Source: Candidatus Helarchaeota archaeon (GTDB lineage: Archaea > Asgardarchaeota > Lokiarchaeia > Helarchaeales > RDOG01). From it: 64,000 nt of DNA. The DNA lies in assembly GCA_019058315.1 (NCBI GenBank), contig JAHPZH010000003.1:137669-201668 (forward strand), written 5' to 3'. The notes below the pieces were generated by a model, which did not search any database, was not told the origin of the DNA, and saw only the letters and a program-made list of their open reading frames with translations. Below, piece after piece: positions 16,312 to 21,831 of the stretch (within the stretch, counting starts at the first letter, position 1; every line of letters begins with the position of its first letter). A program made the position numbers and the translations under genes.

Positions 16312-16986
16312 TCAAACTATATCAAAAACTTGACCTAATCTCATAATTTCAGGACCTGTTGTATCATCCCCAACAACAGCACCATGAGAATTTGCAATAA
16401 CTCCAGACGCAATATATGGATATCCTGCATTTATTGTACCGATATCGACTTCCACCCTAAGGACCTCACCTAGCCATTCCAGAATTTCATGATTGGCATC
16501 AACATGAACTAATACACCTTTGTTTGTACAAAGTGCTTGCGATCCCACCAAACCAGGTTCTTCTGATCCGAGGATATTTCCTTTGACTATTTCTACGCCT
16601 AACGCATCCTCAATAATTTTCAATTGATTCCTTTCAAAGTCAGGATTTATAATTGCGGCTTTATCATTACAAAGAATATTATTTCCTAATGCAGTTAATT
16701 CAGTTCTAACTGTTGCTATATTGATATCCAATTGTTTTTGAAGTTTAATTTGCTCATTATCCGTTATAGTATGAGGGACTAGATATCCATTTTTATTTCC
16801 AATAGATAATGTATGTATGATGTGGGATTGTGCGATATTTATAGCAATACATGATACATTTAAGGTATTTTCTACTGTTTTTATTTCTCGTTTGGTTAAT
16901 CCTTCAGGAATTACACAATAATCATCAGTAGCAAATGAAAAAACGCCAATGTTTGGATTATTGAAAAAATTTTGCTTAATAATCAT
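16312..16986 (-). CDS. eif6: Translation initiation factor aIF-6
   Basis: [51 protein letters not shown]. Confidence 0.95.
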
Positions 16987-17102: not shown

Positions 17103-18038
17103 TTGATTGAATTAAAAAATTTAACAAAAAAATTTAAGGAAACAGTTGCAGTTAATGATATCTCTTTAAAGATAGAAGATAAAGAAATTTTCGGTTTGTT
17201 AGGACCGAATGGGGCAGGTAAAACCACGTTACTCTTAATTATTGTTACCGTTTTGAGACCGACTTCGGGTACTGCAATAATTAATGGATTCGATGTATTA
17301 ACTCATCCAAATGAAGTTAGAAAGCAGATTGGTATATGTTTTCAAGATGTAAAATTGGATTGGTCTTTAAATTATAGAGAGATTTTAAATTGGCATGGGA
17401 AAGTTTGTGGTTTATCCAAAGAAATAAGAGAAAAGAGAATAGCTGATTTGACAAAGAAATTACGATTAGACGAAGCTGGAAAAAAAAGTGTATGGAAACT
17501 CTCGGGAGGTATGAGAAAAAAAGTTGAGGTATCTAAAATATTACTTCAACGCCCAAAAGTCGCTATTTTTGACGAACCTACCTCAAATTTAGACCCTGAA
17601 ATGAAAAACATAATTTGGGAATATATAGAAGCGATGAGAGATGAACATGGTAGTACTGTATTATTAGCAACAAATCAGATGGAAGAGGCAGATGAATTAT
17701 GTAAAAAGGATAGAATAGCTATTATTAATGAGGGAAAATTAATAACAATTGATTCACCAGTAAAACTTAAAGACTCAATTCCTGGGGGCGATATTATTGA
17801 AGTTAAAACAAATAAAAGTGCAGATGCAATTAAAGGAAAAATATTAAATATCGACCATGTTGTTGATGTCCAATTAACTGATAATGAGGCATATATTTAT
17901 CTAAATCATTCTGAAAAAATTGCGCCTCATATTTTACAGCTTTTCATAGAAAATGGGTTTACTATAAATAAGTTCAAAATGAGTGAACCTTCACTGGAGC
18001 AAGTTTTTTTTAAGTATACAAAACGGAGTTTATTATGA
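17103..18038 (+). CDS. ABC-2 exporter ATP-binding subunit (DrrA-like)
   Basis: GPNGAGKTT, LSGGM, FDEPT, PSLEQVF. Confidence 0.95.
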   Translation: MIELKNLTKKFKETVAVNDISLKIEDKEIFGLLGPNGAGKTTLLLIIVTVLRPTSGTAIINGFDVLTHPNEVRKQIGICFQDVKLDWSLNYREILNWHGKVCGLSKEIREKRIADLTKKLRLDEAGKKSVWKLSGGMRKKVEVSKILLQRPKVAIFDEPTSNLDPEMKNIIWEYIEAMRDEHGSTVLLATNQMEEADELCKKDRIAIINEGKLITIDSPVKLKDSIPGGDIIEVKTNKSADAIKGKILNIDHVVDVQLTDNEAYIYLNHSEKIAPHILQLFIENGFTINKFKMSEPSLEQVFFKYTKRSLL

Positions 18039-18805
18039 GTAAAGTAATTCTATATGTCGCAGAGCGTGATTTGAGATATATTTGGAGTAATTTAATTTTC
18101 TTAATGGTTCAATATATTTCATTCATTATCCAAATTTTTGTTTATTCTATAGTTTTGAATGCTCTAATACCTTTGTTAAATTATGTAACCTATTATGCAA
18201 CAGGAATGACAATTTTAACCTTATGGTCTATTTCCATGTATACAGTTTATTTTGTATATGGGGAAAAAACACACGGAATATTGCCATATATCTTAACCTT
18301 ACCGATTACAAGGAGAGATTATGTAATTGGCAGAGTTATTGGTTCGAGTATCAGAGTAATGATATATATTTTTCCATTGGTTTTAATAACCCTATTTGTT
18401 ACTGGAGTAGAAAATCCCATTAATTTATTGATGGTTATAGGGTTACTTTACTTATTTATATTTGGTGTTAATGGTTTAGCCGTTACTCTTGGTTCTGCGA
18501 TTAAAGGGGAACGTAAACTGGATATATTAATGGGTGTAATCGATGCATTCATGATTAGAATTTCAACAATTTATTATCCCCAATATGCTATGGATACTTG
18601 GATGCAAATAGGATCTCAAATTAATCCATTATCACACATTTCTACGCTATTTAGATGGTCTTTAGGTATGCAAAATGTTCTTTCCCCGCAATTTCCACCA
18701 GAATTAATTATATCAATAATATTTATTATAATTTTATCCACACTGCTCTTTATTTTTAGTTTGAAAATTTATGAGAATTCAATAGAGGGGGGAGAACATG
18801 GATAA
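18035..18805 (+). CDS. ABC-2 type permease
   Basis: About 6 TM, NPLS motif, 4-nt overlap with the ATPase. Confidence 0.9.
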   Translation: MSKVILYVAERDLRYIWSNLIFLMVQYISFIIQIFVYSIVLNALIPLLNYVTYYATGMTILTLWSISMYTVYFVYGEKTHGILPYILTLPITRRDYVIGRVIGSSIRVMIYIFPLVLITLFVTGVENPINLLMVIGLLYLFIFGVNGLAVTLGSAIKGERKLDILMGVIDAFMIRISTIYYPQYAMDTWMQIGSQINPLSHISTLFRWSLGMQNVLSPQFPPELIISIIFIIILSTLLFIFSLKIYENSIEGGEHG

Positions 18806-19616
18806 AGGCTATACTTCTAGATTTGGAATCCTTTCTGTTATTCTAGAAAGAGATTTAAGAAGCTTTTCAAAATACAGTTGGTGGATAATTGGTTTAATAA
18901 TGATGAATTTAGCCGATCTTTTTATTTTGGCAACTACATTAACGAAAATTACAATTGGTCTAAATTATTTTATTTTTTTCACTCCAGGAATAACTATGTT
19001 AGCTACATTTTCAAGTGCATTTTTGATGGGTAGAGAAGTTAATGAAGAAAAAAGATATGGTAGAGATCAATATTTACTTGCTCTCCCCATATCGAGAACT
19101 ATTTTTATATTTGGTAGAACTTTAGCTGGTGCAGTTAGAGGGATAATTTATAGTATTTCATTGTTAATAATGGCGTTAATTTTTACCAGCACTTCGAAAA
19201 TAATTTCAGATTTTTCTATAGGACTCGTTATAATTCCATATAGAACCTTTCTTGATTATTCAATCTTATTTTTCATATCAATAGGAGTAATTTTCCTTAC
19301 ATCTTTAGGAATGTCTGAATTCAGTATAGCAATTGGAACTTCTATTAAAAAATTTGAAAATTATTCTTTATCTCGAACTTTTGCTTCGCTTTGGTTAATG
19401 TTTGGATCTACAGTTTATTATCCTAGAGAGAAAATGCCAGGAATTATGGCATTTTTTTCAGATTTGAATCCTTTAAGTTATGGAGTTAATATTCTTAGAG
19501 GTCTCCTCTTTAATATGCCAATCAGAGTGTTGGATATTATTGGATTATTGGTTTTTACTGTAGTTATGTTCTTTTTATGTTTTTATTTCTACAATAAATC
19601 CACACAAGGGGAATAA
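18798..19616 (+). CDS. ABC-2 type permease
   Basis: PGI, LPISR..GR, YYP, NPLSYGV motifs. Confidence 0.9.
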   Translation: MDKGYTSRFGILSVILERDLRSFSKYSWWIIGLIMMNLADLFILATTLTKITIGLNYFIFFTPGITMLATFSSAFLMGREVNEEKRYGRDQYLLALPISRTIFIFGRTLAGAVRGIIYSISLLIMALIFTSTSKIISDFSIGLVIIPYRTFLDYSILFFISIGVIFLTSLGMSEFSIAIGTSIKKFENYSLSRTFASLWLMFGSTVYYPREKMPGIMAFFSDLNPLSYGVNILRGLLFNMPIRVLDIIGLLVFTVVMFFLCFYFYNKSTQGE

Positions 19617-19684
19617 AATTAGATAAATTAGATATTAAGTAAGTCTATTTAAAAAAGATTAAGAAAAAATTTTAAAATATAAGT

Positions 19685-19942
19685 TTAGACTTTTTTCAAA
19701 ATTTCAATTGCAATTACTTTACCATTTTTTATTAAAAGTCTCGGTGTGTAGTCAGAGCTAAAAATAAAACCTTCTGGTAGTCCAGAGGCTTTTTCAATAT
19801 CTTTTTTGATAACTTCTTTTCCAAGAACCATTACTTTCTTTTCAGTAACTGCATAAAAGACGGGGGGTATTACTACACCTTCCCGTTCATAACCTTCAGG
19901 CAAGTCATTATTTAAAACTTCATCTAAAATAGCTTGAGACAT
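19685..19942 (-). CDS. Stand-alone 'domain X' protein (paralog of the C-terminal domain of the upstream gelsolin-like protein)
   Basis: Aligns end-to-end with aa ~125-209 of 19958..20587 (PEGYERE/PDGFDRE, VLGKEV, LPEG/LPDG, LIKNGKVIAIEILK/LIKDGKVAAIEILK). Has its own AGGAG SD. Confidence 0.85.
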   Translation of the reverse strand: MSQAILDEVLNNDLPEGYEREGVVIPPVFYAVTEKKVMVLGKEVIKKDIEKASGLPEGFIFSSDYTPRLLIKNGKVIAIEILKKV

Positions 19943-19957
19943 AAAACTTACTCCTTT

Positions 19958-20587
19958 TTAAAGTCTTTTTAAAATTTCAATAGCTGCAACTTTCCCATCT
20001 TTAATTAGAAATCTAAGTCCATATGAATTATTAAAGAGAATCCCATCTGGAAGTTCTGTAGTTTTTTGAATTTCAGTGTTCACTACTTCCTTTCCCAGAA
20101 CTTTGGCAACACTTTTAACAACTCCATAAAAATCCTGTCCTAGAATGATCGCTTCTCTATCAAAGCCATCAGGAATTCCCTCTCCCATTAATGTATTTCT
20201 CATATCATCAGATAGTGTTTGAGTTATTACACCAACTTCTTCTTCAACTTCACCTTCAGCCATTGGAGGTCGTGCTTTGGCTTGGGGGTTTTCAGCAACT
20301 TCTTTCTCATAAATTGATTTAAATTCGTCAGGTTCTTCATCTTGATCAACGGGGATAACTTTATACATTAAACCCCTGCCACCTCTTACTTCTTGGGAGA
20401 TCCTTGCACCGATGAATTTCTTTGCTACAGAACATTTATTGCCCTTCCATAACCATATTAGTCTTGTATCATCATCAATTATAAGTAGTACTAACTCATT
20501 TTTTAGAGCTTCTTTAACAGATGGAGTTTTTAAGTATGTAGTTTCGCCCGTTTTGAGCACAGAAAAAATTTCCAAACTTTTCACCAT
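19958..20587 (-). CDS. Asgard single-domain gelsolin fused to domain X (1DGelX-type)
   Basis: LLIIDDDTRLIWLWKGNKCSVAKKFIGAR...VDQDEEPDEF gelsolin-domain signature plus C-terminal REAIILG...AIEILK domain. Confidence 0.85.
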   Translation of the reverse strand: MVKSLEIFSVLKTGETTYLKTPSVKEALKNELVLLIIDDDTRLIWLWKGNKCSVAKKFIGARISQEVRGGRGLMYKVIPVDQDEEPDEFKSIYEKEVAENPQAKARPPMAEGEVEEEVGVITQTLSDDMRNTLMGEGIPDGFDREAIILGQDFYGVVKSVAKVLGKEVVNTEIQKTTELPDGILFNNSYGLRFLIKDGKVAAIEILKRL

Positions 20588-20739
20588 TTGAGCTATTTAA
20601 TAGTAAATATACAATATTATCCTTCATTTTTATTTTTTCTGATTTAATGTTTATTTATTCATTATGAGTATTAAAAGTTTCCTTAAATTGAAGATTAAAG
20701 GAGGTGATTTAAACAGATATTAATTCGATTATAAAGAGA

Positions 20740-20867
20740 TGGTAGCCCCGCCCGGAGTTTCGGAATAATTTTTTATAATTATACTTTCGAACCGGGGTCA
20801 GAGGGTCCAGGGCCCCCTATGTATAGCCTTTTTTTATCTTAAAATTTGACCACTGCACCACGGGGCT
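20740..20867 (-). tRNA. tRNA-Gln(CTG) with encoded CCA and two non-canonical introns (21/22: 20845-20823; 59/60: 20785-20757)
   Basis: Minus strand reads AGCCCCG TG GTGC AGTGGTCAA [23 nt] ACAT A GGGGG CCCTGGA CCCTC TGAC CCCGG TTCGAA [29 nt] T CCGGG CGGGGCT ACCA. All stems pair after intron removal. Confidence 0.93.
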
Positions 20868-21021
20868 ACAGGGCTAATTTTTTAGTTATTTTATTCTTTA
20901 AATTTAAGTGGTATTAATAACTAATATATCTTTTAAAATTTTAATTCTATTTTAATTCTTAAATAAATCTATCAATAAAAGGAATAAAATTTATTAATTA
21001 AATATAATTTGATGACTTATA

Positions 21022-21831
21022 ATGACAGATAGCTTCGATTCTTCTAGATTCATAAAATTAACTAATTTTTCGGGTGGTTGGATCTGGGTTTCTCATGTAG
21101 ATGAACATATAAATAAATTACTTCCATATTTAGAGAAAATTTCAAAAGAAAAACTGAAAGAGATTTGGACAATTATTGGTGCTGAAGAAAAATCATGGAA
21201 ACCTTATGAAGATACAGAATTTTGCGTAATTATTAATCCGCTACCAGATTTTGTGTTGTTATTAGTCTATAATGAAGGAGATGAGGAGTTTCCTTCGGAA
21301 TTGAAGTATTTCTATGAAAAAAAATCATTAAGTGTTCCAACAGAAGATGCATATGTTTTTACAGAAATCTATCTAGAAATGATAAGACAGATTGCCAAAT
21401 CTGAAAATATTTTGATTATAGAGACACCTGATATAATTTCTCTTGGAGATTTAGCAGATAAACATCCAGATCTGGAAAGAGAAAAGATATTACATGATAT
21501 AATTGGACAAAGATTTGAACCTATAAAATATATTGATAGAAAAACTGCTAATACGATTGCAAAGAACTTAAAAATCGAGATTATACCCAATTGGGAACAT
21601 GAAAAATCTGAATGGGCACTAGAATTTGAACTTTTTCAAGATTTATCTATTTTTTATATAAAATACTTGGAGGATTCATCTCCAAATTTGAAAATTTACT
21701 TTCATGTATCCATCCTCAAGTATAATCTTGAAATTATCATAAATTTCTCTTGGTTATTTTTAAACGCAATTATTCGAGAGGGGAGGAAAATATTAGGAAA
21801 TAAGATGCCCAAAATTTCTGAATTTCTTTAA
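21022..21831 (+). CDS. DUF3786-like protein (two-domain)
   Basis: PLPDFVLLLVYNEGDEEFPSELKYFYE...PTEDA matches the DUF3786 motif from memory; a weaker second copy lies in the C-terminal half. Confidence 0.6.
   Translation: MTDSFDSSRFIKLTNFSGGWIWVSHVDEHINKLLPYLEKISKEKLKEIWTIIGAEEKSWKPYEDTEFCVIINPLPDFVLLLVYNEGDEEFPSELKYFYEKKSLSVPTEDAYVFTEIYLEMIRQIAKSENILIIETPDIISLGDLADKHPDLEREKILHDIIGQRFEPIKYIDRKTANTIAKNLKIEIIPNWEHEKSEWALEFELFQDLSIFYIKYLEDSSPNLKIYFHVSILKYNLEIIINFSWLFLNAIIREGRKILGNKMPKISEFL

Follow-up and report, generated by a model that had tools for sequence, protein, structure and literature searches.

A free-standing domain X gene conserved beside a short one-domain gelsolin gene in one order of Asgard archaea, a candidate two-gene actin-regulating module

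Introduction

Why would an archaeon encode, directly downstream of a putative actin regulator, a separate gene for only the C-terminal domain of that regulator? The question is raised by positions 19,685 to 20,587 of a 64,000-nucleotide stretch of contig JAHPZH010000003.1 (the window) from a “Candidatus Helarchaeota” genome, GCA_019058315.1. Proteins that combine one gelsolin domain with a C-terminal domain X, termed 1DGelX, were described in Thorarchaeota (Akil et al. 2020, PNAS, PMC7444086) and have been counted in Lokiarchaeota (PMC9433394); they are among the few biochemically characterised Asgard actin regulators. According to Akil et al. (PMC7444086), Thor 1DGelX nucleates at sub-stoichiometric doses, bundles, and severs, with nucleation and severing independent of calcium, and X was proposed to be its filament side-binding module; X was modelled as a coiled coil by I-TASSER and could be neither expressed alone nor crystallised. 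As recently as 2025, the X of B35_GelX, a protein of GelX architecture from L. ossiferum that co-precipitates with Lokiactin, was called a domain of unknown function, and the available text of that work reports no free X protein and proposes no binding partner for X (10.1101/2025.11.30.690169). X has so far been a black box.

The original prediction for this locus was that a gelsolin-X gene (here GelX-A) and a free X gene (here X-only) form a two-component module in which the free protein could co-assemble with the larger one and titrate or scaffold its activity, and such a pairing was not known to have been described. In keeping with the latter, the 1DGelX and GelX literature considered here (the available text of PMC7444086, its preprint, PMC9433394, and 10.1101/2025.11.30.690169) makes no mention of X as a free-standing protein, of a partner gene in an operon, or of X domains pairing. 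The Asgard actin-regulator family is known; the conserved, lineage-restricted GelX-A/X-only variant is the new part.

Layout and transcription of the two genes

The two genes and their parts all lie on the minus strand, at the following window coordinates.

19958..20587, minus strand: GelX-A gene (open reading frame call), 209 amino acids plus stop, encoding a short 1DGelX-type protein (P0001)
20303..20587, minus strand: gelsolin-fold head, GelX-A residues 1-95, identified by phmmer and by Foldseek to 7c2f
20216..20302, minus strand: linker, GelX-A residues 96-124, acidic and fast-evolving, with low pLDDT and high dN
19961..20215, minus strand: X domain of GelX-A, residues 125-209, identified by homology to X-only and its AF2 pattern, forming its own clade
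19943..19957, minus strand: spacer of 15 bp, with a Shine-Dalgarno-like GGAG at 19951-19954, 8 nt before the ATG of X-only
19685..19942, minus strand: X-only gene (open reading frame call), 85 amino acids plus stop, a free-standing domain X paralogue (P0002)
19664-19669 and 19651-19656, minus strand: two T6 runs just past the X-only stop, within 35 nt (sequence reading)

Both reading frames, the strand, the 15-bp gap, and the GGAG ahead of X-only are as originally reported. X-only had been described as a copy of the C-terminal domain of GelX-A, and indeed it aligns from end to end and without gaps with GelX-A residues 125 to 209 (BLASTP; 34 of 85 identities, or 40%; 68% positives; E 3e-23), a similarity far above chance. 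The four motifs said to be shared by the two proteins, PxGxxRE, VLGKEV, LPxG, and AIEILK, all fall within this alignment. Given the reading frames, the spacer, and the end-to-end alignment, the original observation was correct in every particular. X-only is made up wholly of a domain that it shares with its larger, multidomain paralogue. In the window, X-only continues the reading frame of GelX-A, and no further stop lies in the 15 nt between them.

The short spacing, the Shine-Dalgarno-like sequence, and the position of the T-runs suggest that GelX-A and X-only are probably transcribed as one bicistronic mRNA. Oligo-T runs are termination sites for archaeal RNA polymerase; within the 15-bp spacer the longest T-run on sequence reading is at most 4, and the T6 runs 3' of X-only would constitute an oligo-T signal of the archaeal terminator type. 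A weak hint of co-transcription comes from a wetland metatranscriptome, in which one 151-nt RNA-library contig (95 to 99% identity) spans 19906 to 20055 and crosses the gene junction, taking in the final 98 nt of GelX-A, all of the spacer, and 37 nt of X-only, at a depth of 2 at which DNA carry-over is possible. It is one of two 151-nt contigs from an RNA-library run, the only sequencing run to cover a small share of the stretch, and these contigs give no strand, level, or transcript ends; the uncovered parts are uninformative. No tRNA was found by ARAGORN at 20500 to 21100, a result that is neutral towards an intron-split tRNA there, and a scan for sigma-70 promoters and hairpin terminators, of a type ill-suited to archaea, was at or below shuffle expectation.

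The gelsolin-fold head of GelX-A

Against the Pfam Gelsolin family (PF00626), GelX-A scored 12.2 bits (E 0.17), under the gathering score of 21, and precomputed matches to PF00626 were present in three of its relatives (P0010, P0016, and P0018). Despite this sub-threshold score, the gelsolin domain originally claimed was upheld by two other comparisons. The first was a phmmer search of PDB sequences, which matched Thor ProGel (7c2f, E 2.6e-7), Thor 2DGel3 (7c2h, E 1.7e-7), Loki and Heimdall 2DGels, and villin, all over residues 10 to 92. The second was structural: the AF2 model of the head (residues 1 to 95) superposed on 7c2f_B with a TM score of 0.89 and an rmsd of 1.6 A (Foldseek, E 8e-7). 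Foldseek against the PDB gave 72 matches to the head at E<=1e-3, the best 50 of the 72 all belonging to the gelsolin superfamily, and Thor ProGel 7c2f is the nearest solved relative of the head. Conserved residues of the head are W47, G49, K57, F58, and A61.

The AF2 model of whole GelX-A (pLDDT 83, pTM 0.54) was folded at residues 1 to 95 and 127 to 208, with pLDDT below 50 in the linker at residues 111 to 123, and so depicts two domains on a flexible tether. No second gelsolin domain was found in GelX-A. Its order of one gelsolin domain (1-95), a linker, and a non-gelsolin X (125-209) bears out the 1DGelX architecture that had been assigned to it. The 1DGelX proteins of Thorarchaeota and Lokiarchaeota likewise have an N-terminal domain of gelsolin/cofilin fold followed by a non-gelsolin X and are restricted to Asgard archaea. 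In contrast to these, GelX-A is a short form of 209 amino acids, with a linker of about 30 residues, no C-terminal tail, and a separate X-only gene; its link to Thor 1DGelX is one of architecture. Its 16 relatives (50 to 92% identity) come from Helarchaeota/Promethearchaeota MAGs. Besides these, a bona fide actin (448 bits), a gelsolin with two domains, and additional proteins containing gelsolin domains are encoded in the same genome as GelX-A.

Conservation of the gene pair

X-only is not unique to this genome, having 31 relatives and 10 syntenic loci. The relatives are 83 to 92 amino acids long and 60 to 98% identical to it (mean column identity, 74%), and they derive from MAGs labelled Helarchaeota or Promethearchaeota or from unnamed metagenomes. 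The GelX-A/X-only pair, with gene order and strand unchanged, recurs across 10 distinct lineages, all of them Helarchaeota-type MAGs belonging to one order, the syntenic loci being the window, L001, L002/L003 (equal to L014), L004/L005, L010, L011, L012, L015, and L036. At every readable locus, a GelX-A of 199 to 213 amino acids lies directly upstream of an X-only of 84 to 89 amino acids with a gap of -4 to 24 bp; GGAG or GGTG precedes the X-only start at other loci too. The remaining neighbour genes vary between loci, save for a frequent eIF-6 gene.

Within the order, X-only orthologues (E 1e-34 to 1e-46; frames of 85 to 96 amino acids) were found in five of the seven species genomes, all five of which carry GelX-A as well, and four of them were found again in an independent scan of named records. 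The two genomes without X-only (82% and 93% complete, with the caveat that applies to MAGs) are also without GelX-A. In the rest of the class (154 genomes), X-only was absent and X occurred solely inside longer frames at E 1e-24 or worse; among the X frames found there at E<=1e-22, the shortest had 133 amino acids, one other had 216, and every remaining one had at least 250. The pair is specific to one Asgard order of the Helarchaeota type. The same pairing was not found in another lineage, where one candidate free X (P0129) had no adjoining gelsolin gene and the contig of another (P0133) was too short for neighbours to be read.

The surroundings of the pair have their own pattern. At related loci, eIF-6 lies directly after X-only. 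In this genome and at L001, a three-gene ABC transporter, consisting of an ATPase and two ABC-2 permeases, lies on the opposite strand between X-only and eIF-6 (window 16312-16986 and 17103-19616), and at L002/L003 ABC-2 permeases occupy that place without eIF-6. Separately, a typical GelX-A/X-only pair was found under a bacterial name, “Candidatus Deferrimicrobium sp.” (L025, DATKTP010000220.1), probably because an Asgard contig was mis-binned or mislabelled.

Selection on the module was gauged from pairwise comparisons of codon alignments from eight lineages. Mean dN was 0.213 for X-only, 0.321 for the gelsolin head, 0.319 for the X of GelX-A, and 0.862 for the linker, so that X-only had the lowest dN of all segments. 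Because dS was saturated (above 1 or undefined) in most pairs, omega is rough, and only relative dN and the closest pair were used; for the latter (window and L001), X-only gave a dN of 0.047, a dS of 1.34, and an omega of 0.035. The original prediction had named, as a sign against it, an X-only unique to this genome with a dN/dS near 1; X-only is neither confined to this genome nor near that value, its dN/dS being far below 1. On these codon comparisons, X-only is under strong purifying selection and is clearly the most constrained part of the module. That the pair is a real, conserved functional module appears almost certain.

Fold and family of domain X

An exhaustive HMMER search with X-only among 1.8 billion representative sequences returned 79 proteins. 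Most carry X after a single N-terminal gelsolin domain with a linker of variable length, as in the 1DGelX architecture; typical members are 280 to 320 amino acids long, often with a short tail. The X profile matched 364 of 400 Asgard genomes, and the family includes Odinarchaeum LCB_4. This architecture and spread lend indirect support to a putative homology between this X family and the X of Thor 1DGelX. The genome studied here encodes four X domains, namely X-only and those of GelX-A, GelX-B (300 amino acids, with a long P/Q-rich linker, the same long-linker type as B35_GelX), and GelX-C (284 amino acids, with a lysine-rich tail). GelX-B and GelX-C are encoded on other contigs, and neither has an X-only gene beside it. 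Some 3 kb separate GelX-C from a gene of the actin family, a 575-amino-acid frame with two Pfam Actin matches (G000:C5:148334-153134; L009 covers 151134-154358), and this may be a second actin-regulator neighbourhood.

From an input alignment of 103 sequences, AF2 predicted X-only with high confidence (pLDDT 94.4, pTM 0.80) as a helix at residues 2 to 11 followed by five strands, and the X of GelX-A shows the same pattern in its model. X is predicted to be a compact domain with an N-terminal helix packed on a five-stranded antiparallel sheet and not a coiled coil, whereas the Thor X model of PMC7444086 is a coiled coil; the new model (pLDDT 94) offers a confident alternative for a domain without a solved relative. 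Foldseek against the PDB gave no solved fold relative of X at E<=1e-3 (best E 0.08, TM 0.22). When X was compared with 48,161 chains by VIA-align, the highest Z was 4.4, too weak to assign a fold and not in itself proof of a novel one; the weak likenesses were to Cache/PAS/GAF-type sheets (up to Z 4.4) and to Roadblock (Z 2.7). In the ESM Atlas, only Promethearchaeota (Asgard) clusters exceeded TM 0.5 with X (0.69 to 0.80), the next best reaching 0.41. X fell in no Pfam family; its matches to YlqD and Urocanase_N (E 0.07 to 0.19) were dismissed as noise. Near-invariant residues across the X family are P56, G58, and R68.

Origin of X-only

In a tree of 75 X domains, X-only formed one clade (support 95/83) and the X of GelX-A its own (98/95). 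Both fell, together with a third group, in a joint clade (98/95) that leaves GelX-B and GelX-C outside. Branching among the three groups is a trichotomy, in which the sister group of X-only may be either the X of GelX-A or the third group. The third group comprises GelX proteins with SAP/HeH tails and two Gel-X-X proteins, P0066 (434 amino acids) and P0074 (442 amino acids). Gel-X-X proteins have one head and two X domains, the same parts as GelX-A plus X-only, but with both X domains in one polypeptide, whereas in the pair studied here the second X has its own gene and ribosome-binding site. Because the two X copies in each of P0066 and P0074 are mutual closest relatives, they arose by independent internal duplications, and with two fusions and one separate gene, duplication of X beside such a gelsolin head has occurred no fewer than three times.

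The two X domains of the pair have diverged unequally from the family. X-only keeps 32 of 44 family-wide conserved positions and the X of GelX-A 25 of 44, the latter having, among other changes, YG[IL]R in place of YTPR and LPDG in place of LPEG. Positions 26-27 set X-only apart from every other X domain, with PP instead of G-x.

Predicted pairing of X domains

One complex was predicted, that of the X of GelX-A (alignment A4) with X-only (alignment A2). Its ipSAE was 0.63/0.70/0.66 in the three values obtained, the best control reaching 0.00. The mark used for this score had been reached by 58 of 80 solved complexes and by 2 of 110 mismatched pairs, counts that hold only roughly here since our own alignments served as input. 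Runs agreed in at least 98% of contacts, with a partner pLDDT of at least 82. The predicted interface, of about 104 contacts, is reciprocal, in that position 60 of each chain meets position 69 of the other, and involves residues 53-61 and 65-77, that is, the LPEGxFF loop and the YxPR strand, including the near-invariant P56, G58, and R68. In the model, the interface is built from the most conserved motifs of the family. No solved complex of like kind was found.

The score expresses the confidence of a model and speaks more to the pairing of X domains as such than to the choice of partner. Because near relatives of a true partner reached the mark as well in calibration, the score does not distinguish the heterodimer from homodimers of X-only or of GelX-A, and pairing of GelX-B or GelX-C with X-only is likewise not separable by it. 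The model thus makes it likely that X domains pair, without indicating which pairs form in the cell, and it makes binding of X-only to the X of GelX-A somewhat probable. For the original suggestion that free X co-assembles with its 1DGelX partner, the outcome is mixed: pairing is predicted (ipSAE 0.66 against 0.00) and the Gel-X-X fusions fit it, but the heterodimer is not told apart from a homodimer. Alternatively, actin might bind at the conserved LPEGxFF/YxPR surface, which the model would then have buried in an interface.

Proposed mechanism and alternative explanations

The reading that we favour, with a probability of about 0.5, is that GelX-A and X-only are co-transcribed and form a heterodimer that fixes the valency of the regulator. 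In such a two-gene module, GelX-A would be a short 1DGelX-type actin regulator and the second gene would supply a free X. Two X domains would associate with two-fold symmetry, meeting at the LPEGxFF loop and the YxPR strand, and X-only would take up this surface on the X of GelX-A. One copy of each protein would then make up the functional heterodimer, in which an X:X' body bears a single gelsolin head; the fused Gel-X-X proteins found in other Asgard archaea would be its one-chain counterpart. By preventing or replacing the self-pairing of GelX-A, X-only would give a fixed number of actin-binding heads per particle; it might fix GelX-A as monovalent or else provide it with a different second surface. 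An ordinary 1DGelX, by comparison, would become bivalent through its self-pairing X, and if X does self-pair, this bivalence would account for the sub-stoichiometric nucleation, bundling, and severing that a lone gelsolin domain lacks. An effect of valency on actin is held tentatively, as somewhat less likely than not, and consequences for actin nucleation, bundling, and severing would follow from it.

We regard as more doubtful the wider proposal that X is in general a self-pairing module that makes 1DGelX bivalent, with X-only capping its interface as a microProtein-type control, an outcome reached independently elsewhere by Gel-X-X fusion. MicroProteins such as Id, which acts on bHLH factors, and LITTLE ZIPPER, which acts on HD-ZIPIII, have eukaryotic transcription factors as targets and are separately regulated. 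Like X-only, they are small proteins that consist only of the pairing domain of a larger paralogue, and a heterodimerisation of this kind, which for X-only is a prediction, could alter the number of functional heads. X-only, by contrast, probably shares an operon with its presumed target, which favours the role of a stoichiometric subunit over that of a regulated inhibitor. X-only may also cap all three GelX paralogues, switching them between bivalent and monovalent states.

The main rival to the pairing reading, which we consider rather unlikely, takes X to be a filament side-binding module and has X-only act on actin directly, competing with GelX for docking and shielding filaments from severing; an X-only homodimer could also cross-link filaments, and binding to GelX-A would not be required. 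It draws on published biochemistry, as Thor 1DGelX severs and bundles and the gelsolin domain alone (ProGel) does not (PMC7444086), and the GelX of L. ossiferum co-precipitates with Lokiactin (10.1101/2025.11.30.690169). The genome encodes a bona fide actin for such binding, and the retention by X-only of 32 of the 44 family-wide positions, against 25 of 44 in the X of GelX-A, is what would be expected of a copy that preserves an ancestral binding function. On the other hand, the putative binding of X to actin concerns a domain that Akil et al. could not produce alone (PMC7444086), and the X:X' prediction passed with controls at zero. The operonic coupling to one GelX paralogue, the co-absence of the two genes, and the recurrent Gel-X-X fusions are better explained by X-X pairing, although side binding and X-X pairing are not mutually exclusive.

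An improbable alternative makes X-only an independent small protein, for instance a homodimer or one with other partners, whose adjacency to GelX-A is the scar of a tandem partial duplication. X does occur free or N-terminally elsewhere (P0129 after Roadblock/LC7 genes, P0081 and P0092 with a zinc ribbon, and P0078), and the weak fold likenesses of X are to PAS/GAF/Cache and Roadblock-type sheets (Z 2.7 to 4.4); the position of P0129 beside Roadblock/LC7 rather than gelsolin means that a free X need not act with GelX. A scar would be expected to drift apart, however, whereas adjacency, strand, and a spacing of at most 24 bp have been kept despite saturated synonymous sites and changed neighbours, and GelX-A and X-only are jointly present or jointly absent within the order. 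The conservation of the pair makes both a pure duplication scar and a spurious open reading frame unlikely. Very improbable is the last explanation, that the 85-amino-acid frame is a non-functional remnant, a spurious call, or the end of a Gel-X-X protein produced when the single TAA is read through, as the shared frame and stop-free spacer of the window might suggest, in the face of 31 full-length relatives (mean column identity 74%), the lowest dN, and a Shine-Dalgarno sequence of its own. Read-through fusion of the two frames was ruled out, frame and stops not being conserved between loci: elsewhere the spacer is out of frame (gaps of -4, 17, 14, 5, and 1) or holds further in-frame stops (L001 and L015).

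On the favoured heterodimer reading, X gains a testable role, pairing through its most conserved motifs, to which three separate duplications of X beside one head lend support. If X pairing sets valency, it would explain how a one-domain gelsolin can sever and bundle, and it would offer a simple pre-eukaryotic route to multivalent actin regulators. Were X-only inert, the locus would still neatly illustrate how a domain can be duplicated and the order of the genes conserved. Being a naturally free and strongly conserved X, X-only is an obvious candidate for expression and structural work.

Other architectures of domain X

Several members of the family place X outside the usual gelsolin-X order. 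X is N-terminal in proteins of 167 to 168 amino acids with a C-terminal zinc ribbon (P0081 and P0092) and in P0078 (444 amino acids), where it precedes a C-terminal region of about 350 amino acids without a Pfam family. From these N-terminal placements, X is a mobile module and more than a gelsolin appendage. P0129, a distant free X of 91 amino acids, lies directly after two Roadblock/LC7-domain genes with no adjoining gelsolin gene (L027:1549-2776).

GFP-1DGelX expressed in human cells was concentrated near the nuclear envelope and the endoplasmic reticulum, according to Akil et al. 2020 (PMC7444086). A sister group of gelsolin-X proteins carries C-terminal SAP, HeH (LEM-like), or Rho_N motifs above the Pfam cut-offs, for example, HeH at 41 bits (cut-off 28.9) and SAP at 39 bits (cut-off 23.9); examples are P0088 (residues 338-375), P0095 (residues 186-266), P0075/P0128, and one ESM Atlas cluster. 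In eukaryotes, motifs of the SAP/HeH type bind DNA or mark inner nuclear membrane proteins.
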